A stretch of DNA of 64,000 nt from an uncultured Chthonomonadaceae bacterium (GTDB taxonomy: Bacteria; Armatimonadota; Chthonomonadetes; Chthonomonadales; Chthonomonadaceae): contig CAWIEK010000049.1 of assembly GCA_963835065.1 (NCBI GenBank), positions 96,001-160,000 on the forward strand, read 5' to 3'. Of this stretch, positions 17,558 through 55,857 are shown piece by piece. The notes beneath the pieces are model-generated. The model saw only the letters and a list, made by a program, of their open reading frames with translations, searched no databases and was not told where the DNA came from. The position numbers were made by a program, and so were the translations under genes. The number at the start of each line of letters is the position of its first letter. Position 1 is the stretch's first letter.

Positions 17558-17581
17558 CTATCAACTATCAACTATCAACTA
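17558..17581. repeat. Heptamer tandem array (CTATCAA)x3
   Basis: Read directly; same unit as at 55778-55857. Confidence 0.85.
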
Positions 17582-17797
17582 CTTACTCAGGAAGGGAGGT
17601 GCCAGTCCTATGTTCCCCTTCTCCCGTCCGCCCTGACGCTGCTGAGGTCACGACGCCTCACTCCTACAACCAGACACAACGAGACATCGGGCTGGAAGCG
17701 CTGCATTGCCAAGATTTCGACGCTGCCTCTACATATCATTTTTTCATCCTTCATCCTTTGCTTCCCGCCTGTTCGGGAAGGGATAGAGTTACAGTTC

Positions 17798-20700
17798 CTA
17801 ATCATCATCGTCGCGGGGCGCGGGGCCTTTGACGACATTGCAGGCGAGGGTGTACAGATGCGCCTGTGTCGCCTTGTACTGCGGGGCGTTGAGGTGGTGC
17901 TTGACGGCGGCGGCTTTGTGCAGGTCGTCGGCCTTCATGCTCAGGCGGGTGATGACGCCCAGGCGGTGGCTGTCACGATCCGGGCCGCTCAGGTCGAGGT
18001 TCTTCACCAGCGCCCAGATACGATGCCCTTCTGTCGTGGGCGTGTATTTCGCGATCCGCGTGAACTGGCTGCTATCGAGCGTGATGCCGTTGTAGGTCGG
18101 CTGGAACATATCGCGCATATCCGTTGCGAACAGGTCGCCCAGGTTGTTGGGCGGCAGGCCGAGCAGCAGTTCCTCCGTTTTCACGATAGAAGCCGTGCTG
18201 TAGTGCTGTTTCGCCAGGTAGCCCGGCTTGGCGTAGGGGCTGACAATGACAACCGGAGTCCGATGCTGATGGATGTGATCCAGCGTGGATTGCGCGTCGT
18301 CTACCGAAAAGATGATCGCGCTGCCCGTGCCATCGCCGCCTGTATCGGGATTGCTGTAGTACACGGAACTGTGCATAATGTGCTGAATAATCATGCCAAC
18401 CGCCACGTCGCCATCCGCCACTTGCTGCGGGGCCGTCGGTGACGCGATATTCGCAGCGCGCGTTCCCCCCGTATGCATATTGGGCACATAAATGTACAGG
18501 AATTGCGGCAATGTACCCGCCGCATTCATGCGGTCAAAATCCGCAATAAACTCGTTGGCGCGGCGCTGATCGGAAATGTTGAAGTTGTAGCCAGGGTAGC
18601 TTTGATCCAGGCGCGGCTCGCCGCTCCGATTGGTGGTTCCCACAACCGCCAGGCCGGGGTACGCCATGAAGAAGGACTGACCGACGCCATAAGGCCGCGC
18701 CTGCCCATTCGGACGATTGAACAGGGTATCCACGTCCCCCGCGTTCACAAGCGGATTAAAAATGGTCGGCGGGTTGTTGGTGGAAAGCGTGGGATAGCCC
18801 ATTTTACCGCTGGCCGGGTCGTTAAGCGTGGAGGGCGTACTGTCGCCCGTATCCGTGCCGATGATGCGGGCGGCTTCCAGGCCATACAGCTTGAAGTCAA
18901 CGCCGTTGCGGGCGGCATTATTATAAATGTAGCCGCTTTCGGGATAATCTTCCACATCAAAGTTTTTGTTGACCAACATGCCGCGCCCGCTTTTCACGAG
19001 CAGCGTTTTCTCCATGTAATCGGAGGCCGTTCCCGACGCGCAGAACTGATGGCCGGCATCCGACTCTTCTGAATCGGAGTAGTAGTTGACGCCGGTGGCG
19101 AAGGTTCGCGCCAGAATCTGGATGTTGGGCACAACGCCTGTAAACTGCGCGTTGGCGTGGATACCGCCATCGGGATTGTTGAACGTATTGCTTGCAAACG
19201 CGCCGAAGTGGGACTGGTTGCCTAAAAAAGAGTCGAACGTTTTGTTTTCGCCCAAAACAAAGAACACGTGCTTGATTTTGGCGGATGCACCCCCGCCTGC
19301 CGGCACGACGCTGGTATCCACGCTGTTGTGAAAGGCGAAGTTGTTGCCCAATACCGTCGTATTGTCAAGCGCAAGCGTGGTCAGGTCAATCTTCTGCGCC
19401 GTGCCGAAAATGTAGTTGCTGTCCGTAAACAACTCTACGCCCGTCGGGTTGTGCGTTCCGCTGACCGTCTTGGGATTGATGTCTTCGCCGATGCCTTTGG
19501 CGTTGATGACAAACAGGGTTTTGCCGTCCGCGCTGACGTTCACGCCCGTCGGATACCAGTCTGTTGGGATGCGTCCCAGCAGTTTCGGCTTTGTGGGGTT
19601 GCTCGTATCCAGTACGGCCACGCTGTTGATACCGGCTTCCGCGACATACGCGCGGGTGTTGTCCGGCGAAACCGCAATGGCGTTCGGGTACGCGCCATGC
19701 GCCTTATGCCGATCCCTCAGCGTGACGTTGACGGGAGCCAGGTTGAAGTCGCGCAGTCTGCGGCTGTTATTGACCACGATCAAGCCGATGCTGTCGTTGT
19801 TGGCCTTGCAGACATACAGGACTTCCTGCGTTCCCTTGCGCACAATGGCGGTTGCGCACGGGTGCGTATCGCCTACCAGATACAAAGGGTCAATGCCGAT
19901 GCGGTAGGCGGGATCGAAGCCGCCGGGCTGTCCCTGATAAACCGCGCCCAACAGAGTGGCATTCGCCGGATTGCCGCCGGGAATGGAAACGATGGAAATG
20001 GACGAGGTTTTCGGATTGGAGCCGGTCGCGCTGATGGGCGGCACGTAAAACCCGTCCGGCAGGTTCGGGATGCCAAGCGTATTAATAGGGTTGAGCGCAG
20101 TCAGGTCGCCATTACTGTCATAAGTCACATTGCCGAACTTGTACTCCGTTACGCCCCAGTTGGAAACCAGCACCTTGCTGCCGTCGCGGCTGACCGACAC
20201 GCCATACGGAAAATAGCCGACGGGAACCTGCTTGACAACCGTGTTCAGCGAGGTATCAATCACGGCCAGGCTGTTGTCGCCGTTGCAGGCGACATACAGA
20301 TAGCGCCCATCCGGGCTGAGGGCGGAACCGGCGGGAAAGGTGATCTTCGCGCCGCCCGTACTGTATCCGGCGGGACGGTAAATGACGGACGAGCCTACAG
20401 GAAAACTGGCCTGCGAACCGGGCGCAACCGTGTAGTTGGACACGTAATTCTGGTTTTTGGGCAGGATAGGTAAAATCGTGATGGCAGCGCCCCCGCTGAT
20501 AATACCGGCAGGGGAAATACTGAACGTCTTCACGCTTTGGCTTGGCCCGGCGGAAGCGTACAGCGCGTAGGGGCCATTGCCTTTCACCTGCAAGCCAATG
20601 TAAACCGGGCCGGCAGTGGCGATTTGCGACACAACAGTCATATCCGAAGTCCGCAGTACGGACAAGGAGTAGCCGCCGATATTGATGGCGCTTTGCAGCG

Positions 20701-21079
20701 AGGCCATGCCGCTGCCGCGCTCATCATCGTTGCTGGTAATCAGGTACTTGCCGTCCGGCGTCAAAATGGAGCCAAGTGGGTTCATGCCAATCTGCACAGT
20801 TTGTCCTGTCGGCGTCACCTTGCGGCCATTAGGCAAAATTCCGGCAAAGTAGCTTCCCAACTTGTTCGGACCGGCAAACAGTTCCGCGCCCGCGTACACG
20901 CCCGCCTCAGACGTGCCGGCAAGCGGCGTCGTGACCTGCCCCCAGTTTGTGGCATTAATCGTCTGCGCCTGCGCAAAGGCAACTGCCAGCGTAAGAGAAG
21001 TGGCTACGCCTGCGCAAGCCAGCCCCCTCAGCAAACGAGAATCCGCCGCAAGCAATGGCGTTCGACGTGGATATTTCAT
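17798..21079 (-). CDS. Secreted YVTN/YncE beta-propeller plus phosphoesterase (alkaline phosphatase-like) protein
   Basis: Signal peptide; propeller blades (SPDGRYLYVAC, VPVGYFPYGV); IKHVFFVLGENKTFD, ESDAGH, PNMHT, DDAQSTLDH. Confidence 0.85.
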   Translation of the reverse strand: MKYPRRTPLLAADSRLLRGLACAGVATSLTLAVAFAQAQTINATNWGQVTTPLAGTSEAGVYAGAELFAGPNKLGSYFAGILPNGRKVTPTGQTVQIGMNPLGSILTPDGKYLITSNDDERGSGMASLQSAINIGGYSLSVLRTSDMTVVSQIATAGPVYIGLQVKGNGPYALYASAGPSQSVKTFSISPAGIISGGAAITILPILPKNQNYVSNYTVAPGSQASFPVGSSVIYRPAGYSTGGAKITFPAGSALSPDGRYLYVACNGDNSLAVIDTSLNTVVKQVPVGYFPYGVSVSRDGSKVLVSNWGVTEYKFGNVTYDSNGDLTALNPINTLGIPNLPDGFYVPPISATGSNPKTSSISIVSIPGGNPANATLLGAVYQGQPGGFDPAYRIGIDPLYLVGDTHPCATAIVRKGTQEVLYVCKANNDSIGLIVVNNSRRLRDFNLAPVNVTLRDRHKAHGAYPNAIAVSPDNTRAYVAEAGINSVAVLDTSNPTKPKLLGRIPTDWYPTGVNVSADGKTLFVINAKGIGEDINPKTVSGTHNPTGVELFTDSNYIFGTAQKIDLTTLALDNTTVLGNNFAFHNSVDTSVVPAGGGASAKIKHVFFVLGENKTFDSFLGNQSHFGAFASNTFNNPDGGIHANAQFTGVVPNIQILARTFATGVNYYSDSEESDAGHQFCASGTASDYMEKTLLVKSGRGMLVNKNFDVEDYPESGYIYNNAARNGVDFKLYGLEAARIIGTDTGDSTPSTLNDPASGKMGYPTLSTNNPPTIFNPLVNAGDVDTLFNRPNGQARPYGVGQSFFMAYPGLAVVGTTNRSGEPRLDQSYPGYNFNISDQRRANEFIADFDRMNAAGTLPQFLYIYVPNMHTGGTRAANIASPTAPQQVADGDVAVGMIIQHIMHSSVYYSNPDTGGDGTGSAIIFSVDDAQSTLDHIHQHRTPVVIVSPYAKPGYLAKQHYSTASIVKTEELLLGLPPNNLGDLFATDMRDMFQPTYNGITLDSSQFTRIAKYTPTTEGHRIWALVKNLDLSGPDRDSHRLGVITRLSMKADDLHKAAAVKHHLNAPQYKATQAHLYTLACNVVKGPAPRDDDD

Positions 21080-21452
21080 CGCGATTGGTTTCTCCTTCTT
21101 CGGAAGTAAAGTTTTTAAGGGTGTTAGGGTTCTATGGTTTTAGGTGTTTGGTATTCAGACTTCCTATATTCCGTATTCCTGAATTCCGTCTTCCAACTTC
21201 TGCCTTCTAGCCCGTCTCTGCTTACCACTTCTCTAATAAGTGTACCTGTTGTAGCATTTTTGTTGTTAAGCGGGCATTAAGATGAGGTTAAATTGATGTT
21301 GAAGCAGGCGCGAAGACGAAAGTCTCGCATTTTCAGGCGCTGAATTTTCCGCAGGGCAGGAAATTGCCCTTGCCGCGTGGAAACATTCAGGCATCGGCAG
21401 AACGCAAATTTACGTTCTTGCGCGGCGAATTATCTACCTTCAGGAGAACACG

Positions 21453-22130
21453 ATGGCACGAACAGCATTAATCGTACATGGCGGATGGGAAGGGCACGAA
21501 CCCCGGCAGGTGGCGGAAGTCATTGACGAGCTTCTGCGCGGCAAGGGGTTTGAAACAGAAGTATCGGACACGCTCGACGCTTTCAAGGACGCGGAAAAAC
21601 TCATGGAATTGAGCCTCATCGTTCCCGTTTGGACAATGGGCAAAATTTCGGGCGAGCAGCTCAACCCGGTTGTCGCGGCGGTGAAAAACGGCGTAGGCAT
21701 CGGCGGCTGTCACGGCGGCATGTGCGACAGTTTCCGCGAAGCCACAGAATGGCAGTTTATGACGGGCGGGCAGTGGGTGTCCCATCCCGGCAACGCGGGC
21801 GTCACCTACCCGGTCCACATCACCGACCCGAACCACTTCATCACGCAGGGCACGTCGGATTTTCAGGTCACGTCGGAACAATACTATCTGCACACCGACC
21901 CCGGCAACAAAGTGCTGGCGACAACCCCGTTCCCCACACCCGGCGCGGACGGCCCGCATGTCACCAATGGCACGATTACCATGCCCGTCGTCTGGACCAA
22001 AATGTATGGGCAGGGGCGCGTGTTCTACTCGTCCATCGGCCACGTCGCCGCAACCGTCCTCGAACCCGACCCGCTTCGCCTGCTGACTCGCGGCCTGCTG
22101 TGGGCGGCCAAAGCGGAAGATGCGGCGTAG
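21453..22130 (+). CDS. ThuA domain protein (class I glutamine amidotransferase-like)
   Basis: GGWEGHEP, GGCHGGMCDSFR, GGQWVSHP, SEQYY, GRVFYSSIGH. Confidence 0.85.
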   Translation: MARTALIVHGGWEGHEPRQVAEVIDELLRGKGFETEVSDTLDAFKDAEKLMELSLIVPVWTMGKISGEQLNPVVAAVKNGVGIGGCHGGMCDSFREATEWQFMTGGQWVSHPGNAGVTYPVHITDPNHFITQGTSDFQVTSEQYYLHTDPGNKVLATTPFPTPGADGPHVTNGTITMPVVWTKMYGQGRVFYSSIGHVAATVLEPDPLRLLTRGLLWAAKAEDAA

Positions 22131-22292
22131 GTTGGTGGTTAGTGAATGGTGGTTGGTGGTTGGCAGATTGCGTTTATGATTGTGCGGCAACGCAATCATG
22201 GGCTGCTGCCCGTCCATGCCGGCAGTTGGATATGCCGGCTTGAGCGGTATGGCTTACGTAATACGGAAACTGTTTGGTAAAGGAGTGGGTGC

Positions 22293-24087: not shown

Positions 24088-24091
24088 AGAT

Positions 24092-24192
24092 GGTATTCAG
24101 GTGTTCGGGAATACAAAAGTACCGAACTTTACTTTACGGCAACTATACTGGCTGAACACCTGAACACCTGAACACCTGAATACCTGAATACC
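24092..24192. repeat. Inverted octamer arrays, GGTATTCAGGTGTTC / (CTGAAYAC)x5
   Basis: Read directly; related units at about 31630-31660 and 39201-39225. Confidence 0.85.
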
Positions 24193-24202
24193 CTCCTCAA
24201 CT

Positions 24203-28177: not shown

Positions 28178-28303
28178 AAAGGATGAAGGATGAAGGATGA
28201 ATTTAGGGAACAGGAAACAGGGGACAGGGAACAGAACTCCCGAATACCGAATACCGAACACCCAACACCGCCTTTATCCTTCATCCTTCATCCTTCATCC
28301 TTT
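28178..28303. repeat. Nested inverted heptamer arrays (GGATGAA)n...(TTCATCC)n
   Basis: 24-bp perfect inverted repeat at 28178-28201 and 28280-28303, enclosing GGGAACA-like and CCGAATA-like heptamer arrays. Confidence 0.9.
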
Positions 28304-29626
28304 GCAGAAATTGATTCCGCCCGTGAGGACGAATTCGATACCGTTCTGGAAGTGATGTGCGCCGCGTTTGAATTGCCGTATCAGGTGGCTCGACCTGTCT
28401 TTTATGCCGATCCTTACTTTGACGCGGAAAACAAGCGGGTTTTGCGCGTGGATGGCAAAATTGTATCGTGCCTGACGATTACTTCGGCGCGGTGTCAGGT
28501 GGGCAAAACGGTGCTGCCCATTGCCGGGATTTCGGGCGTGGCGACGCTGCCGGAGCATCAGCGCAAAGGCTATGCAAGCCGCTTGATTGTGGAAACGCTG
28601 CACACGCTGCGCGAACGCGGGGTTGCGCTTGCGGGATTATTCCCGTATGATTACGCTTACTATCGCCGGTTGGGTTGGGAAACGGCCAGTGTCGGCTATG
28701 CTTTTGCCATCGCTCCTGTCAACCTGCCTTCTTACTCTGAAGCTGCCGGAGTGCAAACCGCCGCTCCCGAACACTGGTCAGCCCTTGCAGAGTTGTACAA
28801 TAATTCTTCGGAATCATGGACACTGCGGGCTACACGGGATGAAAAACGCTGGCGATATGTACAGGATCGGGTTGCGAGCGCATGTGTGTATGTTCATGTG
28901 GCGGAAACCGGTGAAACTGTCGAGGGGTACTTGCTGTATGATATACAGCCGGGGCGGGTGCAGATTGGCGCGACGGATCTGGAGCAGCCTCCTGTTTTGC
29001 GCGTGATGGAGTTTTGCGCAAGCACCCTACGGGCGCGGCGCGGATTGTTAGGGCATCTTGCTTTACAGCGTCAGGTGGGCAGGATCGAATATGTCACTAC
29101 GCCACAGCAATTAGAAGCGGTAGGGTTGATGGGACTGTCTTGCCCGAAGGGAATAGACGGACCGTTTGCGCAGATCACGCTTACGCCCTCGTTAATGCTT
29201 CGGGCAGTGGATTTCGCGCGGATTATAGAATCTTTGCGCGTCAATTGGGACGGTTTTGCAGGCGAAATCCTCCTGTCGCTGAAAGATGAACTGCTTGCGC
29301 CCGACAGCGCGAACGTACTGATCAGCGGGGATGGCACAGGATTGCCGAATGTTGTGAATGTCTCCGAAACGAGCGCAGGGGAACGTCTGCCGGGAGAGCG
29401 CAACCCGGCGTCCTTGCCCAATCAGGAAACGGCGGAAAATAAAGCGGAATTAGCGCGCGTGGAGGGCAATGTCGGCGCCTGGTCGCAGGTTCTGGTGGGG
29501 CATGTCAGTGGCGACGATTCCTGCGCGATGGGCTGTCTGCAAGCCTCTGCGCCTGTCGCGGCTGCGCTTGCCGGACAACTCTTTCCTGCCCGTTTTCCGT
29601 TTCTGCCAGTTCCCGATCACTTTTGA
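28190..29626 (+). CDS. GNAT acetyltransferase, Eis-like; first ~38 aa derive from repeat sequence
   Basis: GISGVATLPEHQRKGYAS, LFPYDYAYYRRLGWE, C-terminal DHF. Confidence 0.85.
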   Translation: MKDEFREQETGDREQNSRIPNTEHPTPPLSFILHPSSFAEIDSAREDEFDTVLEVMCAAFELPYQVARPVFYADPYFDAENKRVLRVDGKIVSCLTITSARCQVGKTVLPIAGISGVATLPEHQRKGYASRLIVETLHTLRERGVALAGLFPYDYAYYRRLGWETASVGYAFAIAPVNLPSYSEAAGVQTAAPEHWSALAELYNNSSESWTLRATRDEKRWRYVQDRVASACVYVHVAETGETVEGYLLYDIQPGRVQIGATDLEQPPVLRVMEFCASTLRARRGLLGHLALQRQVGRIEYVTTPQQLEAVGLMGLSCPKGIDGPFAQITLTPSLMLRAVDFARIIESLRVNWDGFAGEILLSLKDELLAPDSANVLISGDGTGLPNVVNVSETSAGERLPGERNPASLPNQETAENKAELARVEGNVGAWSQVLVGHVSGDDSCAMGCLQASAPVAAALAGQLFPARFPFLPVPDHF

Positions 29627-29729: not shown

Positions 29730-31595
29730 ATGATTCGTGCCGCCTGTCTTCGCGCTTTCGCGCTGCTTCTCCTGGCCGCAGCAGGCAGTTGGGGAGGGGA
29801 CGCCAAAGCGGAGCAGCCGGAACCTACTGGTTCTAACAAGCAGGCTGAGGTGAAAGTTGTGTCCGCAGCCCCTGCGCTTCAAGCCCCTGCCGCACAGCCT
29901 GCGCCCGCGGTGGGACAGGCGGGAACTCCCGCTGCCGGGCAATCTGCCCCGGCTGCCAATGGAACGAGCGGCGTAATTCTGCCTGCAAACGCTTTTCAAA
30001 CGCCTGCGCAATTGCAGTACAACATTCCGCGCACTCCGGTATTAGGGGGCGTGGTTGATCTGGATTTGAGCAAGCCTTTGTCGCTGGATCGCGCCATTCG
30101 TATCGGCCTGTTGCGGCAAAACTCCATTGCCATTGCGCAAACGCAAATTGATGTCGCCCGCAATCGGCTGGTACAGGCGCGCTCTACCTACTTTCCACAG
30201 GTGACGCCCAGTTTTCAGTATCAATCCACCGTGACGCCCGGACGCCGCACGATTGTCGGTACCTCAACTCCAACAGGAACCACGTCGGGCGTAACGAGCG
30301 CTGCGGGCCTTTCCCGGCAGGCAGGCGGCGGCACGTCAACGGGCAGCGATCCGGGAACGGGTTCCAGCCTGCCCGGAGGTACGGGGACAGGCAACGGAAC
30401 GGGTACGGGAACCGGCACAGGCACAGGGTCAACGACCGGCACGGGTACAGGAACCGGAAGCACCGGGACGGGCACGGGTACAGGAACCGGTACGGGGCAA
30501 ACAGTCGTTATCGGCTCCAATGTGTCCGAAAGCCGCACGGAACTGCTGACAGCGTCACAAAACATTTATGATTCGGGCAAGCGCGAGGCCAATGTGGGGC
30601 AGGCAAGGCGCAATGTGTTCGCGGCGGAGTTCGGTGTGGGCGACACACGCCAAATAGTGGTTCTGAACGTCACCCAAAGCTACTACAATCTGCTGCGCTT
30701 CCGGGAACTGGTTCGGGTTCAGGAAGAAAGCGTTCGCCGCGCGCAAACCACGCTGGAAGCCATACAAGCGCAAGTGCTGGCGGGTACAGCCGCGCAAAGC
30801 GATACCTTACAGGCGCAGTCCGACCTTGCCAACGCGCGCATCAATCTGCTGTCCGCGCAAAACGATGTGCGAAATGGGGAAGCAACGCTCAAAAACGTGA
30901 TGGGCGTTATCGCTTCGCAGCCGCTGGTTCTCGCCGATGAATTTATTCCCACGCCCGACCCTACGCCCGACCCGACGACCATTGACGGCTACACTCAGAT
31001 CGCCTTTGCGAACCGCTTCGATCTGAGGCAGCAGCAGGAAAATATCTTTGCGCAGGGCTACAACGTGCGGATCGCTCGCATCAACAACGGCGTTCAGGTG
31101 AATGCAAGCGTCAACGAAGGTTATCAATTAAACCCGGACGCGGGCGAAGTGCGTTCGTTTGTGGTGGCGTTCTCTTATCCGTTGTTTGACGCCGGGAACA
31201 CGCGCTCTGCCGTGCGGGAAACACAGGCGCAATTGGAGCAGCAGCGCCGCACTCTGGATCAATTGCAGCAGAACGTTCGCCTGGACATCGAACAGTCGTA
31301 CAACACGCGCGAACTGGCGCGGCTGCGCGTGGGCGCGGCCAATCTCGCGGTGCAGGCGGGGCAGGTGAACTTCAATGCCGCGCTGGAAAAGCAACGCAAC
31401 GGCCTTGTCAACATTCTGGATGTGATCAACGCCGAAGTTCAGCTCGTCAACGCGCAGGTTTCGCAGGTGCAGGCGATTTATGACTTTTATGTCGCCGACG
31501 CGCAACTGCGCCGGAATACGGGCCAGAATGACCCGGATTATATTCCCAACGTGCCGGGCAACAAGCCGCCTCGTAGGGAATTCACAAGGAAGTAA
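29730..31595 (+). CDS. TolC-family outer-membrane efflux protein with a Gly/Thr-rich insertion
   Basis: LSLDRAI, ARSTYFPQV, VTQSYYNLL, SYPLFDAG, GLVNILDVINAE. Confidence 0.85.
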   Translation: MIRAACLRAFALLLLAAAGSWGGDAKAEQPEPTGSNKQAEVKVVSAAPALQAPAAQPAPAVGQAGTPAAGQSAPAANGTSGVILPANAFQTPAQLQYNIPRTPVLGGVVDLDLSKPLSLDRAIRIGLLRQNSIAIAQTQIDVARNRLVQARSTYFPQVTPSFQYQSTVTPGRRTIVGTSTPTGTTSGVTSAAGLSRQAGGGTSTGSDPGTGSSLPGGTGTGNGTGTGTGTGTGSTTGTGTGTGSTGTGTGTGTGTGQTVVIGSNVSESRTELLTASQNIYDSGKREANVGQARRNVFAAEFGVGDTRQIVVLNVTQSYYNLLRFRELVRVQEESVRRAQTTLEAIQAQVLAGTAAQSDTLQAQSDLANARINLLSAQNDVRNGEATLKNVMGVIASQPLVLADEFIPTPDPTPDPTTIDGYTQIAFANRFDLRQQQENIFAQGYNVRIARINNGVQVNASVNEGYQLNPDAGEVRSFVVAFSYPLFDAGNTRSAVRETQAQLEQQRRTLDQLQQNVRLDIEQSYNTRELARLRVGAANLAVQAGQVNFNAALEKQRNGLVNILDVINAEVQLVNAQVSQVQAIYDFYVADAQLRRNTGQNDPDYIPNVPGNKPPRREFTRK

Positions 31596-31720
31596 GGGTT
31601 GGTAGGGTGTTAGGGTTTTAGGTGGTTACGGTGTTCAGGTGTTCAGATGTTCGGGTATTCAGGGATTGGGCTTGTCTCTAATGCCTAATGCCTAATATCT
31701 AATATCTTGCCTCTAATGCC
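31596..31720. repeat. Degenerate 7/8-mer arrays (GGTGTTCA-type, then CTAATGC-type)
   Basis: Begins immediately after the TolC stop codon. Confidence 0.7.
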
Positions 31721-32556: not shown

Positions 32557-32635
32557 GAGAAATGATGAATGATGAATGATGAGTGATGAATGGAATTCTG
32601 CTTCATCATTCATCACTCAGCACTCATCATTTCTC
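32557..32635. repeat. Inverted heptamer arrays (AATGATG)n / (CATCATT)n
   Basis: Read directly; fills the intergenic gap. Confidence 0.85.
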
Positions 32636-35248: not shown

Positions 35249-35368
35249 GTAGGGATTAGGGATTGGGGATTAGGGATTAGAAGATATACACTTTCTATAC
35301 ATTCTTCCTGCCTCACGGATAGAGTTGCCTCTGCATGCCTGTCCTAATCCCCAATCCCTAATCCCTAC
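35249..35368. repeat. Inverted heptamer arrays (AGGGATT)n; 26-bp perfect inverted repeat overlapping the dgt stop codon
   Basis: 35249-35274 versus 35343-35368. Confidence 0.9.
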
Positions 35369-39166: not shown

Positions 39167-39304
39167 CTACCTCATTCCCACCTCTGCTTTGTAGCAGGGG
39201 GTGTTCAGGTATTCAGGTGTTCGGGCGAGTCAATATAGCCCGGTGAACGCAGTTCATAGCATCCTCTCCCACTATTGGGAGAAGGAAGAAGGATGGAGAA
39301 GATT

Positions 39305-45181: not shown

Positions 45182-45544
45182 GAATAAACCACGGGGAACA
45201 CGGGGAACACGGGGGAGGAGAGGGGAAGAAAAGAAGAAGAAAAGAAGAGGAGAAATAAACCGCGAAATACACGAACCAAGACGAAAAAAGGAAAATACAA
45301 AAAGATCAAACCACGGATGAAACGGATGAACACGGATAGGAGCATCGAAAGCCAACTCGTTCTTGTTATCAATCCTATTTAATCCTGAAAATCCTTTTAA
45401 TCCTGTCTATTCTCTTATGTCTTTTTCCCTTTGTCCTCTTTTCGTTTATTTCGTGTATTTCGCGGTTCCCATTCTCCTCTTCTTCTTTTCTTCTTTTCTT
45501 CCCCTCTCCTCCCCCGTGTTCCCCGTGTTCCCCGTGGTTTATTC
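45182..45544. repeat. ~363-bp nested inverted-repeat element built from 9-mer arrays
   Basis: Outer ~57 bp perfect inverted repeat (GAATAAACCACGGGGAACACGGGGAACACG...), continuing imperfectly to ~120 bp; overlaps the rsmA stop codon. Confidence 0.92.
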
Positions 45545-46429
45545 CTCTTCAAGGTTGGCCAGGCGGGCGAATTCTTCGAGGGACAGGGTTTCGCCCCGGC
45601 GGTTGCCGTCTATGCCGGCGCGGGCAAGGAGGGCTTCGACGCGGGCGCGGTCATCCATGCCGAAGCCCAGGCTGAAGGAAGCGGGGGCGCGGAGCAGGGC
45701 GTTGAGGAGGGTTTTGCGGCGCTGCGCGAAGGATGAGCGGACGATGTTGAAAAAGCGTTGCTCGTCGCGGACGGCGATAGTTCCGGGAACCATCGGGTCA
45801 AGGGCGAGAATGGCGGAGCCGACTTCGGGCGGCGGCAGAAAAACCGTGCGCGGAACCGTGCCGACGATTTCAGGATGCGTGTGGTACTGAACGTAAACCG
45901 ACATCGCGCCATAATCGTCACTGGCGGCGCGGGCGACGGCGCGGTTGGCGAACTCGTGCTGCACGAGCAGAACGATGCGCCGTAAGCGGCTTTTGTGTTC
46001 TATGAGACGTTCCAGAATGGGCGTGGTGATGTAATAGGGGATGTTAGCGACCACAATGCCGGGTTTATCGCCAAAAGCCGCATCAAATAACGGCCCGGTG
46101 CTGTCTTTTTGCAGGAAATCCGCGAATACCAGGCGAACATTGGGAGTGTTGGCGGTCAGTTCGCGCAAAACGGGTTCAAGATGGCGGTCTATTTCCACGG
46201 TTGTCACCGAGGGTGAAACGGCAGCGAGGGCGAGCGTGAGCGCGCCCAGGCCGCCGCCGATTTCCAGAACCGGCTCGTGGGGCTGAAGGTCCGCCGCCCG
46301 CACGATCCGATCCAGAGTGTTGCGATCCACAAGAAAATTCTGCCCCAAGCGTTTTTGTGGGCGTAGCCCATGCGCTTGCAGCAGTTCGCTGGCCTGTTTG
46401 GGTGATACCGGGTCTAGGGTCATGGGCAT
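45539..46429 (-). CDS. rsmA: 16S rRNA adenine dimethyltransferase
   Basis: KRLGQNFL, VLEIGGGLG, EID, VANIPYYIT, FLPPPEV, FAQRRKTL. Confidence 0.95.
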   Translation of the reverse strand: MPMTLDPVSPKQASELLQAHGLRPQKRLGQNFLVDRNTLDRIVRAADLQPHEPVLEIGGGLGALTLALAAVSPSVTTVEIDRHLEPVLRELTANTPNVRLVFADFLQKDSTGPLFDAAFGDKPGIVVANIPYYITTPILERLIEHKSRLRRIVLLVQHEFANRAVARAASDDYGAMSVYVQYHTHPEIVGTVPRTVFLPPPEVGSAILALDPMVPGTIAVRDEQRFFNIVRSSFAQRRKTLLNALLRAPASFSLGFGMDDRARVEALLARAGIDGNRRGETLSLEEFARLANLEEE

Positions 46430-46537
46430 TAGGCATCAGGCATCAGGCATCAGGAAAGGATTAGTCGTTCCCTCTACTTTGTTGTGACCATTAGATAGAA
46501 CGACATTCCTAATGCCTAATATCTAATGCCTAATGCC
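46425..46537. repeat. Inverted heptamer arrays (GGCATYA)n / (CCTAATG)n
   Basis: One arm abuts the 3D-gene stop; the other contains the rsmA ATG. Confidence 0.85.
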
Positions 46538-47251
46538 TTAATCCAGAATATGTACGCGCACGTGCTTCATGTCTTTGACATTTTTCACATCGTGCTGCGA
46601 GTCAATGGCGAGATCAATGCGGCTGCCTTTGATGGCTCCGCCCGTGTCGGCGGCGACGGCGTAACCGTAACCTTCGATGAACAGGCGCGTACCAAGCGGC
46701 ATGAAATGGGGGTCTACGGCCACCACGCCGTAACCTGCCAAAATGCCCGTATAGGTGCGCCCATGATCGTTGCTGCCATCATGGTAGGGATCGTACCACG
46801 TCGCGTTCATCACGACGACGCGCCGACCTGAGAAATAACCGCGCGAGGAAAGCTGCGTTGACCGCCCTTCCTCAATGACTTCGGGACGCGATTGTTTGAG
46901 AATACGGGAACTGACGGCATTGCGCCGCAATTCCGTGCCGTCTGCGCGGCTGGAAACCTGATAGACGACTTCCTTGACACCGTTGACGCCGGGGCGCGTG
47001 GTGCGACTGGTTCCGCTCCGCAGTTGGAACGTGGATTTCCTTAAGGTGGAGTAAGGAATCGGACTGCGCTGCACGACTTTGCGCGTAACCGACGCGGTTG
47101 AAGCAAATTCCGCCGGTTGCGTGTGGGTCGTACTTTGGGGGCTGCCCGTTTGCCGGGGCGCTCCCGCCAGAGTGGTCGCCAGGGTCAGAGAACCGAGAGC
47201 AACCAGTCCTGCGGCAAGCGTTTGCGCGCGGACAGTGGAGATGTAGGACAT
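46538..47251 (-). CDS. G5 plus 3D domain cell-wall protein (YabE/Sps-like)
   Basis: AAAGGAGG RBS; G5 (PGVNGVKEVVY..EVIEEG); 3D (VVAVDP..PLGT..DTGGAIKGSRIDL). Confidence 0.88.
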   Translation of the reverse strand: MSYISTVRAQTLAAGLVALGSLTLATTLAGAPRQTGSPQSTTHTQPAEFASTASVTRKVVQRSPIPYSTLRKSTFQLRSGTSRTTRPGVNGVKEVVYQVSSRADGTELRRNAVSSRILKQSRPEVIEEGRSTQLSSRGYFSGRRVVVMNATWYDPYHDGSNDHGRTYTGILAGYGVVAVDPHFMPLGTRLFIEGYGYAVAADTGGAIKGSRIDLAIDSQHDVKNVKDMKHVRVHILD

Positions 47252-48733: not shown

Positions 48734-49928
48734 GTGGACTCAACGGAACAGGACGGGACGCGGAGGATACTGGCGGGCAGGATGGCGGATGCGCAGGGTG
48801 AGCGAAGCCGCATGGCTGTCTCAGTCGCTAATGGCAAAATCGTCAGTTTGGAGCCATGGAACGACGCGACACAGGGCGGAACCGGGCGATCTGGATGCCC
48901 GCGATGCGCTGCTGCTGCCGGGGTTTATTGATATTCATATACATGGCGGAGCAGGGCGGTATGTGATGGAAGGCACGGAGGACGCGCTGACGGGGATTGC
49001 TTCGCATTTAGCGACGCATGGCGTTACCGGCTTTTTGGCAACTACTGTCACCGCGCCGTGGGAACAGCAGGCGCAGGCGCTTGCCACAACCGCCCGAATG
49101 ATGTCAGCGCAAACGAGCAGAAACGCGAACGATGCTTTAGGCGCGCGGATTTTGGGCTGTCATCTGGAAGGGCCGTACATCAATCCGAAGCGAAAAGGAG
49201 CGCAGCCGGAGCAGTTTGTGCGCCTGCCGGATGTGGCGGAACTGGAACACTGGTGCGGTGACAATTTGAGCGCGGTTCGCGTGGTCACACTTGCGCCGGA
49301 AATGCCGGGCGGGCTGGAACTGACGCGGTTTCTGGCAGGACGCGGGATTGTGCCCTCTATCGGGCATACAGACGCGACTTACGCGCAGATGGAAGCGGCG
49401 ATTGATGCCGGGGCGCGGCACGTCACGCACTGCTTCAATGCCATGCGTCCCTTAGAGGGACGCGAACCGGGCGTCGTGGGCGCAACATTCGCGCGCCCGG
49501 AACTGACGGCGGAATTGATCTGGGACAACATTCACGTTCACCCGTCAAGCTGCCGCGCCTTGATAAACGCGAAAACAGCGGAGCGCGTAATCTTGATTTC
49601 AGACGGCATACCGGGCGCGGGCATGGGCGACGGGTACCAATTCTCGCTTGGCGACTTGAAGATTGTCGTCAACGAAGGCTCCGCGCGCCTGCCGGATGGA
49701 ACCCTCGCCGGCAGCGTACTGACATTGGAAAAGGCGTTCGCCAACGCCACCCCCTTTTCCCTGCCCGAACGCGCCCGCATGACTTCCTACAACGCGGCAG
49801 TCGCGCTTGGATTAGGACACCGCAAAGGACTATTGCGCCCCGGCTACGATGCCGATTTAGTCCTTCTAAATGCGGATGGCAGCGCGCGGGAGACGATTGT
49901 TTTAGGGGAAGTAGTCAGAAGACAGTAG
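48734..49928 (+). CDS. nagA: N-acetylglucosamine-6-phosphate deacetylase; +1 frameshift near 48874
   Basis: PGFIDIHIHG, CHLEGPY..KGAQ, TLAPE, IGHTDA, THCFNAM, LAGS. Confidence 0.9.
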
Positions 49929-50039
49929 TCAGTAGTCAGTAGAAATGCCTGTCTACTCAGATCTGTGTTGTAAAGTAAAACTTTGCTGGTATGAGGCTAC
50001 TGACTACTGACTACTGTCTTCTGACTACTTCCCCTAAAA
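49900..50039. repeat. 43-bp perfect inverted repeat with a (GTAGTCA)n core, overlapping both convergent stop codons
   Basis: 49900-49942 versus 49997-50039. Confidence 0.95.
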
Positions 50040-50349
50040 TTTATCCGTCTCCACCTGTAAGCGAATCTGGCGCAGGATGTTGGCGGCGCGTTCGCAGGAC
50101 TTCAGAGGAACCGGTGTAGGCGATGGCTCTGCCGCGCGTATGGGCTTCCAGCATGATCTGTTCGCAGCGGGGCGCGTCGTAGCCGGTGGCTTTTTGCAGT
50201 TGAGAACTTACTTCATCGAAGCCGTGAAAGTCGTCATTGTAGAGAATCACGACGTAAGGGCCATCATCGTCAGCTACGTCCTGCTCCTCACGTCCCGGCA
50301 GAACGCGCTCTTCAATAAACGGTTCGGCAACCTCCGCATTGGCGGGCAT
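50034..50349 (-). CDS. clpS: ClpS-like adaptor protein; +1 frameshift near 50097
   Basis: YVVILYNDDFHGFDEV, IMLEAHTRGRA; corrected C-terminus CERAANILRQIRLQVETDKF*. Confidence 0.8.
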
Positions 50350-50478: not shown

Positions 50479-51567
50479 ATGCCGGAAAAAAATTACAGCA
50501 AGGTTTGCCTTCAAGAAGACGTCGCGCCGAACCGGCGTGACTTTCTGCGAACAGTAGGGCAGGCTGTCGGGGGCATCGCGCTTGGAAGCGCATTGGCGGG
50601 CGCGACATCGGCGTTTGCGCAGGACAAGGCCGCCGTTGCGCTGACGGCGGGCGCAAAGCCCATTCAGGCGGAAACGCTGGTGAAAACGCTGTTTGACAGC
50701 CTGACGCCCGAACAAACCGCGCAGGTGTGCATGCCCTGGGAACACGCCAAACGCAGCATGGTGCAGGCCAACTGGGGCATTGTGAAAACCAACATCGGCC
50801 AGCAATTCAATGCGGACCAGCAGGAGATGATACGGGGTATTCTGCGCGGCCTGACGACCGAGGAGTGGTATCCCAAAATCACAAAGCAAATGGAAGGCGA
50901 TGCGGGCGGGCTGCAAAACTATTATGTGGCGCTGTTCGGAACGCCCAAGTCCGGCAAGTTTGAGTTCGTGCTGACCGGGCGGCATGTGACGCTGCGCGCG
51001 GACGGACATTCCGACCAGAACGCGGCGTTCGGCGGGCCGATCTTCTACGGCCATGCCGTGAAAGAAACAGAAAACCCGGACCATGCAGGCAACATCTACT
51101 GGCAGCAGTCCGTAAAGGCAAACGCCGTGTTCAGTGCGCTGGACGGCAAGCAGCGCGCGGTTGCACTGCTGGACAAAGCGCCGGAGGAAAGCAAGATAGA
51201 TTTGCAGGGCGCAAATGGAATGTTCCCCGGCATTGCGATTGGCGAACTGGCGCGGGATCAAAAGGCGCTGGTGAAATCCGTGATGCGCGATCTGCTGTCA
51301 CCGTACCGCCCCTCCGACGCCGATGAAGCGATGCGCGACATTGCGGCCAATGGCGGGCTGGACAAAGTGCATCTGTCGTTTTACAAGCAGGACGACCTGG
51401 GCAATGACGGCGTGTGGGACATCTGGCGGCTGGAAGGGCCGGGCTTGGTGTGGCATTTCCGGGGAGCGCCGCATGTGCATACCTGGGTGAATGTCGTCAA
51501 GGATGCCGAAACTCTCGGACGCGCATACGTAAAGTTGGCGGACGGCGCTGCATGTAATGTTTTGTAG
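50479..51567 (+). CDS. DUF3500 protein with Tat signal; true stop probably 51532 if G51508 is an error
   Basis: NRRDFLR; YYVALFGTP, GRHVT, GGPIFYGH, WRLEGP..FRGAPHVH. Confidence 0.8.
   Translation: MPEKNYSKVCLQEDVAPNRRDFLRTVGQAVGGIALGSALAGATSAFAQDKAAVALTAGAKPIQAETLVKTLFDSLTPEQTAQVCMPWEHAKRSMVQANWGIVKTNIGQQFNADQQEMIRGILRGLTTEEWYPKITKQMEGDAGGLQNYYVALFGTPKSGKFEFVLTGRHVTLRADGHSDQNAAFGGPIFYGHAVKETENPDHAGNIYWQQSVKANAVFSALDGKQRAVALLDKAPEESKIDLQGANGMFPGIAIGELARDQKALVKSVMRDLLSPYRPSDADEAMRDIAANGGLDKVHLSFYKQDDLGNDGVWDIWRLEGPGLVWHFRGAPHVHTWVNVVKDAETLGRAYVKLADGAACNVL
51359..51532 (+). repeat. Direct repeat copy 1 (3' end of the DUF3500 gene)
   Basis: Aligns to 52625-52797 with 11 substitutions and 1 indel. 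Confidence 0.95.
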
Positions 51568-51748
51568 GGGCGCAATTTATTGCGCCCTTTGTCATGCTTG
51601 CGCCCTTCATCTTGATTACTGCGCCCTCACAAGGCGGCGGTAGTCTCTCAGTTGCGGTAGATTGTGAGCGTGAGGCGCATATTATAGGCGTGTGGTAGAT
51701 TGCGGGCGTGATGCATCACCGCCGGTACACATTATTTGAACGGTATTG
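51564..51748. repeat. GTAG-type REP element with TTGAACGGTATTG end
   Basis: GTAG-GGGCGCAATTTATTGCGCCC; terminal motif shared with the 41278 and 56830 elements. Confidence 0.7.
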
Positions 51749-51751
51749 CTC

Positions 51752-52593: not shown

Positions 52594-52624
52594 AGCTTAT
52601 TATACCAAATAAGTAATAAATTTA

Positions 52625-52797
52625 TGGACAAAGTGCATCTGTCGTTCTACAAGCAGGACGACTTGGGCAATGACGGCGTGTGGGACATCTGGCGTTTGGA
52701 AGGGCCGGGTTTGGTGTGGCATTTCCGGGGAGCGCCGCATGTGCATACCTGGGTGAACGTCGTCAAGGATGCCAAGTTGTCGGACGCCCATACGTAG
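52625..52797 (+). repeat. Direct repeat copy 2 (detached DUF3500 3' end; in-frame ATG at 52624 gives a 57-aa ORF)
   Basis: MDKVHLSFYKQ...KDAKLSDAHT*. Confidence 0.95.
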
Positions 52798-52830
52798 AGT
52801 TTACATTTACAGCAGTCTTGATTGCCGTGA

Positions 52831-52871
52831 AGAAACCGCGCCTCGAAGGTACACTTCGAGGCGCGGTTTCT
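52831..52871. terminator. 18-bp-stem hairpin, probable bidirectional terminator
   Basis: AGAAACCGCGCCTCGAAG-GTACA-CTTCGAGGCGCGGTTTCT. Confidence 0.7.
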
Positions 52872-52902
52872 ATAGGAGGCTGAGGGTAGTCTTGAAGAAG
52901 GA

Positions 52903-53169
52903 CTACTTGGTGGCTTTGGAGCCGACGCCGCCGTCCGCAGGTCCATTGAAGTTCGGGTTGATGCCGATTGTCGCGCCGCCACCGGAGGAAGGGGCGGCAG
53001 CGTCTTTCTTCGCCGGATTATCGGAGGTGGTTGTACCGGTCGCCGGCGTGGTTGCCGCAGGCGTTGTGGTTCCACTGCTCGATGAGTCCGTATCGCTTTT
53101 GCCGCCACAGCCGATCATCGCGACACTGACAATCCCACACAAGAGCAAAGCAAAGATGCGAGTTTTCAT
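52903..53169 (-). CDS. Small lipoprotein downstream of a DUF1559 gene
   Basis: MKTR..AMIGC lipobox; Ser/Thr/Pro-rich. Confidence 0.75.
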   Translation of the reverse strand: MKTRIFALLLCGIVSVAMIGCGGKSDTDSSSSGTTTPAATTPATGTTTSDNPAKKDAAAPSSGGGATIGINPNFNGPADGGVGSKATK

Positions 53170-53171
53170 GG

Positions 53172-54029
53172 TTACGGTCCTGTTACCCACTGGTAGACGG
53201 TCTTGTCGGTCTGCTTGAGCTGGCTCGAGGGAAGCGTTTTGCTCCAGTTGGTTCCCACTGCCGCTTGACCGGGCTGAATGAACTTGACATGTCCGTCGGC
53301 AAAGGCGCAGTTGGCGTTGCCGGATTTGCGCAGGGTCACGCTGCCCGTGAGGTTGCCGGACTCGTAATCCTTAAGCCCGGATGTATTCTGCCAGAAGCCG
53401 CCCGTACCCCAGTTGTCGAAGCAGTAGGGAACGATGGACGCGCAATCCGGCGGATCTACGGTGACCAGGGTCGCAACAGTACCGGCGCCATACCACCAGA
53501 ATTGGTTGCCGAAATCGCCATAGCCCGCGTGACCGGCAAGCATGATCAAAGTGGAGGGACGCGCCAGCGTTGCCAGAGCAGCCGGAACGCGCGGCCAGGG
53601 GTTTTTGCTTGTGTCGCTACTGGGGCTGAGCGCCGTATAGTTGTATCCATACTGCGTCAGGTACGGCCACCAGGAGCTTGCCGGGGAAAAGGAGCCGGCA
53701 ATGGGCGCGCCCAGAGGATCGCCGAAGATTTGGACGTTCTTCTCATAGGGCAGAATGTTCCATGCCCAGGTAGTAACGGCCTGTCCGCCCAGGTTGATGG
53801 GACCCTGAACGCCCCAGTTCATGTCCTGGACAAAGGTTTCATCGTAGTCCTGCACGTACATCAGGACACCGAGGGACTGCTGGCGCAGGTTGCTCTGGGA
53901 GCTTGTGCCGCGCGCCGCTTGCCGCGCTTGGGCGAAGACCGGGAACAGAATGGCTGCCAGGATCGCGATAATGGCGATCACGACGAGCAACTCAATCAGT
54001 GTAAAACCTGACTGAAATTTTCGTTTCAT
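53172..54029 (-). CDS. DUF1559 prepilin-type protein (H-X9-DG variant with Lys for His)
   Basis: [45 protein letters not shown]. Confidence 0.9.
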
Positions 54030-54462
54030 GATTTCTCTCCGTTAGGTGAATGGTTTGTTAGGTCAAACCAGAAGGATAGCGTATGAGAAGCGAACACAAT
54101 TTAGGGGCAGGGCTGAAATATGGAAAATTATGAAATAGTTCAGTGAACGCACATTCAGGCTGCCTGTAGTCTAGCAATCACCTTCTTTCACAAATTGAAC
54201 AGTTTAACATGCGTTCCGTTTCTAAAACGAAAATACCACGCAACAAGAGAAACGCTCAAGGAAATGTTTGTGAGTTTCTCGCTTGCGTGGCTGCATCGCC
54301 TGCAATGTCTGTCTGTCTTATGTGAGGTATTATCCCGGAAATAGGCTCAAATGTCAAGGGCTATTATCGAAGTTGGCACAAAATTTATGAAATTTGTACT
54401 AAATCCACGTATGAAGCTCTTTACAATCGTATTTTTAGGCTTTGGAGGTTATCAGAGCGTTG

Positions 54463-55128
54463 TCAAAGGGAGGATGGAAAGTGACGGCGCTGCCACCATG
54501 CTGCGTCAAATGTTTCTAATAGCCTGCCTACTTCGCAGAGCGGCAGCCCAACAACATTGAAAAAATCGCCGTCAAAACTTTCGATGAAAGGAGCCGCATA
54601 ACCTTGCGCGCCATACGCCCCGGCTTTATCGCGCGGCTCTCCTGTAGCGATGTAGTCGAGGATCATGGCTTCGGAAAGCGGACGGAAGCGGACGCGCGTA
54701 CACACGGCAGACGTGACATGGGGCGCGCTCCAGTCGTTGCGGCCTGCGGTCAGGATTGCGACGCCGGTATACACCCGATGCGTTCGCCCGGACAACTGCT
54801 GTAACATGCGCAAAGCATCCCGGTCATCGGCAGGCTTGCCCAGAGGAACGCCCCACTCCGAATCGTCGGGCGTGACAAGCGTATCCGCGCCAAGCACCAG
54901 CCCACCTGTCACGCGGCTTGCCACTTCCTGCGCCTTATTCGCGGCAAGCTGCATGACGTAAGCAGGCATGTCAATGGGAACAACAGGAGACGGCGGCTCC
55001 TCATAGCGGCTGGGCACGACTGTGAAAGGCAAGCCAAGCAGCGCAATCAGTTCCCTCCGTCGCGGCGACGCCGAAGCCAATATCAACCCCGGCTCAATTG
55101 CCGTCCGTTTGACTTCTTCATCCTTCAT
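54463..55128 (-). CDS. maf: Maf-family nucleotide pyrophosphatase
   Basis: LILASASPRRREL, LGADT, GKP, DKAGAYGAQ, NVVGLP. Confidence 0.93.
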   Translation of the reverse strand: MKDEEVKRTAIEPGLILASASPRRRELIALLGLPFTVVPSRYEEPPSPVVPIDMPAYVMQLAANKAQEVASRVTGGLVLGADTLVTPDDSEWGVPLGKPADDRDALRMLQQLSGRTHRVYTGVAILTAGRNDWSAPHVTSAVCTRVRFRPLSEAMILDYIATGEPRDKAGAYGAQGYAAPFIESFDGDFFNVVGLPLCEVGRLLETFDAAWWQRRHFPSSL

Positions 55129-55143
55129 CCTTCATCCTTCATT
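55117..55143. repeat. (ATGAAGG)n array on the minus strand between the ANTAR-gene stop and maf
   Basis: Four ATGs 7 nt apart (55142, 55135, 55128, 55121). Confidence 0.9.
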
Positions 55144-55144
55144 C

Positions 55145-55723
55145 TTAAATCAAATCCGCCGCCGTGATGATACTTTGCGCGATTTCGCGCATTTTCTTGT
55201 TCTGATTCCGCGCCTGGAAATGAATGCGCTTGAAGGCTTCTTCTTCGCTCATACGATGGCGATCCATGAGAATGCCTTTGGCGCGCTCGATCAGTTTGCG
55301 TGTTTCCAGCGTTTCCTTCAGCTCATCAATTTCTTTGGTTTGATTCATAATCTGCCGGAAGCGGCGAACGGCCATTTCCAGCGCGGGGGCCAGGTCTTCC
55401 TTGCGAAACGGCTTCATGAGGTACGCAAGCGCGCCCGTATCGCTGGCCTGCTCCACCAGTTCCTGTTCGTTAAAACTGCTGAGGAACAGAATGGCGCAGG
55501 GGGTTTCGTTGAGGATGCGGCGCGCAGCCTCAATGCCGTCCATCACGGGCATTTTGATGTCCATGATAATCACGTCGGGCTTGTGGATGCGCGCGGCTTC
55601 AATGGCCTGTGCGCCGTCGCCTGCTTCCGCAATGACAACATGGCCCAGTTTTTCCAAACGCGCCCTAATAATGGTGCGGGTGAGCTGCTCGTCTTCTGCA
55701 ATGACTGCTTTTAAGGGTTCCAT
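55145..55723 (-). CDS. REC-ANTAR response regulator (PdtaR-like)
   Basis: IAEDE, IMDIKMP, MKPF; LETRKLIERAKGILM..EEEAF. Confidence 0.92.
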   Translation of the reverse strand: MEPLKAVIAEDEQLTRTIIRARLEKLGHVVIAEAGDGAQAIEAARIHKPDVIIMDIKMPVMDGIEAARRILNETPCAILFLSSFNEQELVEQASDTGALAYLMKPFRKEDLAPALEMAVRRFRQIMNQTKEIDELKETLETRKLIERAKGILMDRHRMSEEEAFKRIHFQARNQNKKMREIAQSIITAADLI

Positions 55724-55777
55724 AAACTCTATGCTCCTACATCATGGCGCAGTGGGGCTTTACCGCTTGTGCCTGCT

Positions 55778-55857
55778 AAGTTGATAGTTGATAGTTCGTA
55801 GTTGATAGGAATGCAGGAGCTAGGAACTATCAACTATCAACTATCAACTATCAACTT
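55778..55857. repeat. Inverted heptamer arrays (AGTTGAT)n / (CTATCAA)n
   Basis: Read directly. Confidence 0.9.

Follow-up and report, generated by a model that had tools for sequence, protein, structure and literature searches.

The DNA analysed here (the window) is a 64-kb stretch of contig CAWIEK010000049.1 from the genome of an uncultured Chthonomonadaceae bacterium (G000; an 8.0-Mb assembly, 92% complete). At the ends of its genes, and in places inside them, the window carries tandem arrays of short words of 7, 8 or 9 bases, which differ from locus to locus and in many cases face a reverse-complementary array across a spacer. Such arrays are dispersed through the whole genome, and elsewhere they enclose genes for small Avd-like four-helix-bundle proteins (PF05635/TIGR02436) or for GxxExxY proteins; we suggest that they are the arms of non-autonomous hairpin elements. 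The N-methylation/DUF1559 genes would fit a place in Armatimonadota. For comparison, 1.94 of the ~7.5 Mb of a sister species of the same genus (G002) were used, and three other relatives were sampled for arrays (G001, 160 kb; G005, 100 kb; G013, 80 kb).

Thirteen elements were detected in the window, and all large contigs carry 7–18 per 64 kb. Paired and composite elements are given here without a strand. Between the convergent amidohydrolase and clpS genes, an AGTAGTC / GACTACT pair (49899..50040, fold z -14.7) forms a 44-bp unbroken stem. Its left arm, at 49905, is identical over 37 consecutive bases to the left arm of the four-helix-bundle cassette on contig C8, and the element is the gene-less counterpart of that cassette; the same site in G002 holds a related 8-mer family. 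An AATGATG / CATCATT pair with a short loop lies between a stop codon and the start of an ABC ATPase gene (32561..32631, fold z -7.6), and an AGGGATT / AATCCCT pair, whose two arms mirror each other in a deviant unit, lies at the stop of a minus-strand HD-domain gene (35250..35367, fold z -8.0); the G002 sites hold another word family and a TAGGGAG-type element, respectively. The gap between the G5/3D-domain gene and the ribosomal RNA (rRNA) dimethylase gene is filled by a GGCAT(C/T)A / CCTAATG pair (46425..46538, fold z -5.7), with no such element in G002, and an AGTTGAT / ATCAACT pair with a 16-nt loop is found at 55779..55856 (fold z -9.3). The 8-mer pair at 24092..24192 (fold z -6.8) consists of a short G-type arm and a C-type arm of five CTGAAYAC copies, and ends 10 nt before the start of the biotin carboxylase gene (24203); its spacer resembles the family spacer, and another 8-mer family occupies the G002 site. 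Two elements are nested. At 28179..28302, an outer GGATGAA / TTCATCC pair surrounds non-complementary GGGAACA and CCGAATA arrays, and only the outer pair is present in G002; an in-frame ATG in the left arm adds about 38 codons ahead of the GNAT domain (28190-28310). In G001, a different element-like extension stands in the same place at the start of the GNAT gene. The other nested element (45187..45540) is built like a Russian doll, with an outer 9-mer pair of CACGGGGAA, two further pairs and central non-complementary 9-mer arms; G002 has a shorter 9-mer element there, and 9-mer arms of this type are those that enclose GxxExxY genes.

The remaining arrays are single, partial or composite. A C-type array of 4.6 CAACCCT copies (4762..4793, plus strand) lies in frame in the low-complexity N-terminal linker of an amidohydrolase gene (4614-7412) and is absent from the G001 orthologue. 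A single C-type arm of CTATCAA (3.4 copies, 17558..17581, plus strand) lies just upstream of the apparent ribosome-binding site of a different high-copy repeat, and a partial TTCATCC arm is found at 17743-17758. Positions 17100-17300 and 17540-17750 are pieces of another high-copy repeat, matching dozens of places in five relatives. In a degenerate composite at 21117..21212 (fold z -0.9), C-type 7-mer arms come after a G-type 8-mer arm to which they are not complementary, and a second composite, of two G-type 8-mer arrays and a non-complementary C-type CCTAATG array, begins at the stop of an outer-membrane efflux gene (31596..31716). That gene also contains a Gly-Thr low-complexity repeat of period 12–18 (30381-30496), unrelated to the heptamers. 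A single G-type arm of GGTTGGT (4.9 copies, 22130..22163, plus strand, fold z +0.4) begins at the stop codon of a ThuA-like gene and is followed by a separate palindrome at 22170-22215; G002 carries a different palindromic repeat family at this last site and at the 31596 site. Finally, 2.9 copies of GGTGTTCA make up a partial G-type 8-mer arm at 39200..39222 (plus strand), and a single minus-strand GGATGAA arm bridges the stop of an ANTAR response regulator gene and the start of a Maf gene (55116..55146). An Rfam scan of the window gave no match.

Every array cited in an earlier, sequence-only reading of this DNA was located, with small offsets: the GTAGTCA arm begins near 49910, and at 24092, where the CTGAAYAC array had been placed, the G-rich arm begins, the CTGAAYAC arm itself spanning 24152-24192. 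The in-frame array at 4762-4793 and the nested 9-mer element at 45187-45540 had been overlooked. That reading had described the arrays as usually paired, which holds for about half of the loci; as a general statement it was too strong, only 966 of 2,673 arrays genome-wide having a strictly complementary partner within 200 nt. Among the cited loci, seven are complementary pairs (24092, 28179, 32561, 35250, 46425, 49905 and 55779), three are single arms (17558, 22130 and 55117), and the composites at 21120 and 31596/31678 combine arms that do not complement each other.

The arrays are far beyond chance expectation. Exact arrays of at least three copies number 1,330 at period 7 and 119 at period 8 in the 8.0 Mb, and 0 and 0 in a 2-Mb control sequence of a 5th-order Markov model; at most 32 exist at each of the periods 5, 6 and 9–16, and the 163 at period 4 are near expectation. 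With mismatches allowed, 2,185 period-7, 415 period-8 and 174 period-9 arrays were found, which became 2,673 arrays once overlaps were merged and weak 9-mers dropped, and 1,726 elements after grouping (the counts take in ~0.27 Mb of duplicated haplotype sequence). An assembly artefact is ruled out by the same architecture in G002 and by an exact independent contig: a 233-nt contig of run X1 spans window positions 46305-46537 with zero differences.

The position and polarity of the arrays are highly regular. With gene ends taken from gene calls made for this analysis, and 5,000 random intergenic positions as controls, the outer edge lies -15 to +20 nt from a same-strand stop in 25.9% of 2,568 arrays (4.4% of controls); 17.2% are near a start (5.7% of controls) and 43% near either (10%). 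Typically, the outer edge of the left arm is at the stop codon and the right arm ends 10–20 nt ahead of the next start, and a Shine-Dalgarno word follows the right arm in 289 of 426 cases. The G-rich arm comes first in 483 of the 485 inverted pairs within 200 nt, multi-array elements have the order G-type, C-type 607 times and the reverse order twice, and in G002 the G-first arrangement was found 89 times and its opposite 0 times. The median paired element is 117 nt with a 56-nt spacer, and the arms, of about 31 bp or four to five words each, are concentrated at 23–33 nt with a peak at 30–33 nt. The spacers are diverged copies of one ancestor in most elements of the AGTAGTC/GGTAGAC type (66 of 85) and of the GGTGTTCA type (24 of 35). 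Target-site duplications were not found (the longest word common to the outer flanks averages 3.64 nt vs 3.63 in controls), and the stem does not generally extend into the host flanks by 6 bp or more (3.0% vs 1.5%), the stem at 49899 being excepted. Where elements are nested, as at 28179 and 45187 in the window, outer arms pair with outer arms (8 of 21 elements with two G-type and two C-type arrays), and crossed first-with-first pairing was seen 0 times. The word families in nested elements show a directional order (e.g. 17 vs 2 and 11 vs 1), as would be seen if new arrivals inserted themselves into the loops of older elements.

The sites are more constant than the elements that fill them. Sites occupied in G000 are also occupied in G002 in 63 of 116 cases, compared with 16 of 196 for sites unoccupied here (odds ratio 13, p 3e-19). 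An element is present in G002 at 105 of the 164 orthologous intergenic sites, while 52 have none and seven hold long inserts. When two clear hairpins stand at the same site (n = 78), the word is the same in six, one base off in six and different in 66, and the spacers at different-word sites are no more similar than controls. Within the assembly, 66 pairs of elements in duplicated regions fall into two groups, 58 with at least 85% identity and eight with at most 76%. Between contigs C61 and C36, the flanks are 99.3% identical, while the arms belong to different families and the spacer is related but heavily changed (its score of 59.5 is reached by 0 of 419 other spacers). The contigs of runs X1–X3 and X6 are short pieces with repeat-driven joints, and yielded no usable insertion or excision event. 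Palindromes tagged with GTAG were also noticed in G002, both at some array-element sites and, in frame, within genes.

The genome holds three PF05635/TIGR02436 genes and three GxxExxY genes, and inward arms enclose all of them (3/3 and 3/3), although three of the six arm sets are degenerate and were recognised by eye. The four-helix-bundle cassettes sit between protein genes, none of them in the window. In a census of 29 single-arm cargo candidates, the convincing ones were the three four-helix-bundle genes and one doubtful short open reading frame (ORF), the remainder looking like ordinary genes between elements. The association extends beyond this genome: across many phyla, 61 of 80 C8-protein homologues are flanked by an inverted repeat, compared with three of 76 control windows, and inward arms of the 9-mer type surround four of the six GxxExxY loci of G001 and G002, the other two loci being irregular. 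The match of the four-helix-bundle proteins to Avd is weak and below the cut-off, and the closest solved relatives (2GSC and 2RLD) consist of five chains each. GxxExxY belongs to the PD-(D/E)XK family and shows many transfers; the Atlas gave only PDDEXK_3 clusters for it, and a query against the PDB returned no relative.

At five places elsewhere in the genome, the same site was found both filled with a four-helix-bundle gene and in another state (empty, without an element or otherwise occupied). Neither G002 nor G001 has the C8 cassette, 22–33 bp being left in its place, and in G002 the site of the C33 cassette is taken by an empty 9-mer element; conversely, one four-helix-bundle cassette site of G002 is an empty 9-mer element here, and another is a MazF-like toxin-antitoxin pair with one arm. 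The fifth is allelic: haplotype contigs C25, with a four-helix-bundle cassette, and C37, with an empty AGGCATT element, have 97.8% identical flanks, and the exchanged stretch begins at the stop codon and reaches as far as the following start codon. The proposal of the sequence-only reading that the arrays are empty sites of a mobile cassette is strengthened by these five sites, by the enclosed genes and by the 37-base match of the 49905 arm. For the window loci themselves, cargo was seen in 0 of the 12 site comparisons recovered in two relatives. In the G002 orthologue of C67:6537 of G000, a 448-residue DDE-like transposase ORF (family assigned by eye) lies inside a 9-mer-armed element, and may be a secondary insertion.

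The repeat word appears to track the subfamily of the cargo protein across phyla. From 185 loci with an intact gene, 137 yielded a word: C8-like loci have period 7 in 46 of 49 cases, all of one class around AGGAGTC, and C33-like loci have period 8–9 in 56 of 60. The three proteins of this genome are paired with AGTAGTC (C8), GGGAACA (C25) and AAAAGGAG (C33). Among 112 proteins left after those more than 85% identical were dropped, word similarity climbs from 0.55 to 0.80 with protein identity. The GxxExxY genes have mostly 9-mer arms; G001, with six GxxExxY matches and 0 PF05635 matches, has six 9-mer and three 7-mer arrays in its 160-kb sample. The earlier description of the system as structure-recognising agrees with the variety of words among loci, but the limited number of word families and their agreement with the cargo subfamily suggest that sequence is read as well.

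Elements also exist within genes, where 315 lie at least 100 nt from both gene ends, always with the G-type array before the C-type array on the sense strand. Word forms containing stops are nearly absent from them, and the peptides that they encode are hydrophilic (mean -1.40, vs +0.69 on the reverse strand). Measured against G002 ORFs, 52 of 62 in-gene elements are open in frame and the other ten were scored as frameshifts; the orthologous loops in G002 hold array inserts in 36 of the 62 cases, usually with other words. In valyl-tRNA synthetase (ValS), two inserts lie at loops that vary across the family. G001 has other modules at both of these sites, whereas G164 and G003 each have one at a single site; in-frame elements are also present in metG and ddl. 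In-gene inserts are probably translated, judging from their open frames. A single-sequence fold of ValS had low confidence (predicted local distance difference test score, pLDDT, 41). The gene caller sees open frames only, and split genes were therefore tested separately: intron-like splitting was rejected, two of 153 element gaps mapping to one G002 ORF as against 63 of 353 element-free gaps. A valS frameshift on contig C43 is not in the C69 copy and was treated as an assembly or strain error, many genes being split away from elements; such split genes and the ~0.27 Mb of near-duplicate haplotype contigs suggest indel errors in the assembly.

We regard it as probable, with moderate confidence, that the arrays form the arms of DNA hairpin elements which are non-autonomous, settle on elements already in place and rely on cassette proteins for recognition. 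Small hairpins (~117 bp, with two 31-bp arms and a 56-bp spacer) would replace one another or nest in one another at fixed sites, and would likely move at the DNA level as gene-less passengers of four-helix-bundle or GxxExxY cassettes with the same arms. An Avd-like protein may bind the four to five words of each arm and in this way set word and arm length; the five chains of its solved relatives would fit that number. An existing hairpin would be the preferred target, the newcomer entering its loop or replacing it. A nuclease (GxxExxY, of the PD-(D/E)XK family, or a host enzyme) would make the cut, host repair would copy the element in, and selection inside genes would leave the stop-free, hydrophilic remnants of G-then-C order. 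A stronger version, which we offer only tentatively, is a class of mobile DNA that needs no transposase: the four-helix-bundle (Avd-like) and GxxExxY subfamilies would each recognise a 7-, 8- or 9-base word of their own, with one subunit on each word, and would place hairpins armed with that word, or rewrite them, where a hairpin already stands.

Several observations weigh against the proposed hairpin elements. No cutting or joining enzyme was identified, and neither cargo is known as a recombinase. A word at most one mismatch away from that of a resident four-helix-bundle cassette is found in only 23% of arrays (random words, 4.4%), the largest families (CTATCAA, CCTAATG and GGATGAA) have no cassette in the 92%-complete assembly, and G005 has a cassette and 0 arrays in its 100-kb sample. 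The match of word and protein may reflect shared descent and not binding; the tree was built quickly, from few columns. Three large families show little or no spacer homology (8/71, 7/27 and 14/47), and 81 of 94 in-gene elements of one G-type and one C-type array are not complementary, so that a hairpin is not needed for their persistence. The spacer remains clearly related in four of seven cargo-free allelic changes, more closely than any other spacer; rewriting in place accounts for this better than replacement does, although some of the scores may be raised by leftover arm sequence. Site reuse may partly mirror which gaps tolerate an insert, and element-free gaps diverge between haplotypes too (6 of 80 rows, vs 3 of 26 with elements), so that a rate above background is not established.

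Of the alternatives, one that we consider unlikely needs no dedicated machinery: arrays would arise by replication slippage in place and be copied from arm to arm by hairpin-templated repair, the small genes being surviving passengers. Slippage would account for deviant bases mirrored between both arms (109 of 466, or 23%, within an element vs 7% across elements), for single-unit length changes seen between haplotypes, for the related spacers in the allelic changes just mentioned and for the missing target duplications. Left unexplained by it are the universal G-first polarity, the homologous spacers at dozens of unrelated sites, the word class tied to protein subfamily across phyla, the precise gain or loss of a whole cassette and the concentration of arm lengths at 23–33 nt. 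Somewhat less probable again is an Avd-like rewriting, in which the four-helix-bundle protein and a polymerase or reverse transcriptase re-synthesise the element in place, with an error-prone spacer and with arms in the word of the visiting cassette. The Avd homology, the C61 and C36 alleles and the bimodal allelic identity (58 of 66 at 0.85 or more, eight at 0.76 or less) speak for this; however, the spacers have no adenine bias (A 0.66, T 0.72, G 0.63, C 0.65), their orientation relative to transcription is random (29 vs 28), short-tract recombination may instead import a distant allele, and neither reverse transcriptase of the genome (one group II-like beside CRISPR-like repeats, one retron-like) is enclosed by arms. 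23S rRNA intervening sequences are excised by RNase III. That the elements are comparable host RNA signals selected between operon genes (RNase III sites, mRNA stabilisers or translation-coupling spacers) is quite doubtful, since, for all their strong predicted stems (z -5.7 to -14.7 at paired loci), their stop-to-start placement with the Shine-Dalgarno word and a cargo family first named from rRNA intervening sequences, the arm mismatches show no preference for G-U on the strand that is transcribed into RNA sequence (95 G-U vs 128 A-C), elements are also found inside genes and, in 173 cases, in divergent gene gaps, the sister species has no element at 52 of 164 orthologous sites, and genes are not split. 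Random spacer orientation and the lack of a G-U excess point to DNA and not to a selected mRNA stem; with the splitting result, they also give no support to the RNA-processing alternative of the sequence-only reading, although a secondary RNA effect can coexist with mobile DNA hairpins.

The genome ties heptamer repeats to two widespread gene families of unknown function. The cassettes are likely the source of the long-unexplained 7-base repeats of bacteria; if the proteins read words, an old repeat puzzle and two orphan gene families would be explained together. Were the stronger version true, visiting cassettes would leave successive waves of empty elements, which would explain the heptamer repeats of many bacteria, and there would be a recognition code that links protein to word, along with a steady supply of new protein loops. 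Elements rewrite the loops of essential enzymes and the stop-to-start spacing at hundreds of loci. Matched material is at hand in a 7-base-word subfamily, an 8-base-word subfamily and allelic filled and empty sites. What this genome contributes is the allelic filled/empty exchange, the match of word and subfamily, the site-reuse statistic and the negative tests.

Dispersed tandem heptamer repeats are known from cyanobacteria as short tandemly repeated repetitive (STRR) sequences, and dispersed tandem heptamers in several word families are likewise present here. Repeats of this kind are already in print from Xanthomonas, Nostoc and Beggiatoaceae, whereas a link of heptamer repeats to four-helix-bundle or GxxExxY genes was not found in searches of an open-access library. 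Heptamer repeats, a preference for four units, convergent pairing and a position after stops were described in Xanthomonas and Nostoc (Rehm et al. 2015, PMC4692102). In the parts of that paper drawn on here, the heptamers (GGGAATC / GGGGA(C/T)T) are one word family, read as G-quadruplex formers, conserved in place and unlinked to mobile elements; in contrast, dozens of words exist here, most of them unable to form quadruplexes; words are exchanged at orthologous sites, cargo genes and nesting occur, and 315 copies lie in frame. TAACTGA direct repeats of Beggiatoaceae, Cyanobacteria and Bacteroidetes are start-proximal single arms of one word, for which a translational role and a mobile binding protein were considered, and four-helix-bundle or GxxExxY proteins are not among the candidates in the sections consulted (MacGregor 2015, PMC4679880). 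Many bacterial genomes contain tandem heptamers in excess, and no mechanism of origin is offered in the same portions of the two papers (PMC4692102, PMC4679880).

Like the REPINs (doublets of REPs, which are repetitive palindromes found outside genes), the elements are inverted doublets with conserved ends and a drifting spacer, in hundreds per genome (Bertels and Rainey 2011, PMC3116915); REPINs are moved in trans and singlets are their decay products, according to the passages cited. REP ends, however, are short palindromes beside a RAYT gene, and tandem word arrays are found here (PMC3116915). A RAYT-like gene is present in G000 (L344); among the four Y1 matches of the genome, one is RAYT-like and below the cut-off, none is array-enclosed within 900 nt, and one has a single array 469 nt off. 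With MITEs (miniature transposable elements with inverted repeats), the elements share terminal inverted repeats, a non-coding core and a high copy number, but there is no target-site duplication, and the genes inside the arms are four-helix-bundle and GxxExxY genes, not a transposase. The elements thus work like REPINs and MITEs, yet fall outside both in target duplication and cognate transposase. Rickettsia palindromic elements also lie in frame in housekeeping genes and are presumably translated, but they are ~150 bp with a conserved peptide, as described in the text available to us, whereas word-array mosaics here change from species to species at the same loop (PMC10969869); in-frame insertion with an open frame was found, and one conserved palindrome and peptide per family was not. 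The 23S rRNA intervening sequences carry a four-helix-bundle ORF (PF05635 / cd16375) inside a long stem, and PF05635 has been connected with Avd in the part of the source used (PMC10053308); the elements here differ in lying in operon gaps and protein loops, not in rRNA. Diversity-generating retroelements differ too, the four-helix-bundle genes here being without linked reverse transcriptase or adenine mutagenesis.

Some other features were noticed on the way. The group II-like reverse transcriptase (L345, C49:679500-684500) lies beside a Cas1-like ORF and CRISPR-like repeats recognised by eye, and the retron-like one is L346 (C50:50500-55500). At C47:33500 vs C55 of G000, the haplotypes differ by a 93-bp insert with an apparent 10-bp direct repeat, which is conventional, MITE-like and unrelated to the arrays. 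Contigs of several runs pile up at window positions 53934-54009 and 51563-51719, which suggests further short repeat families.

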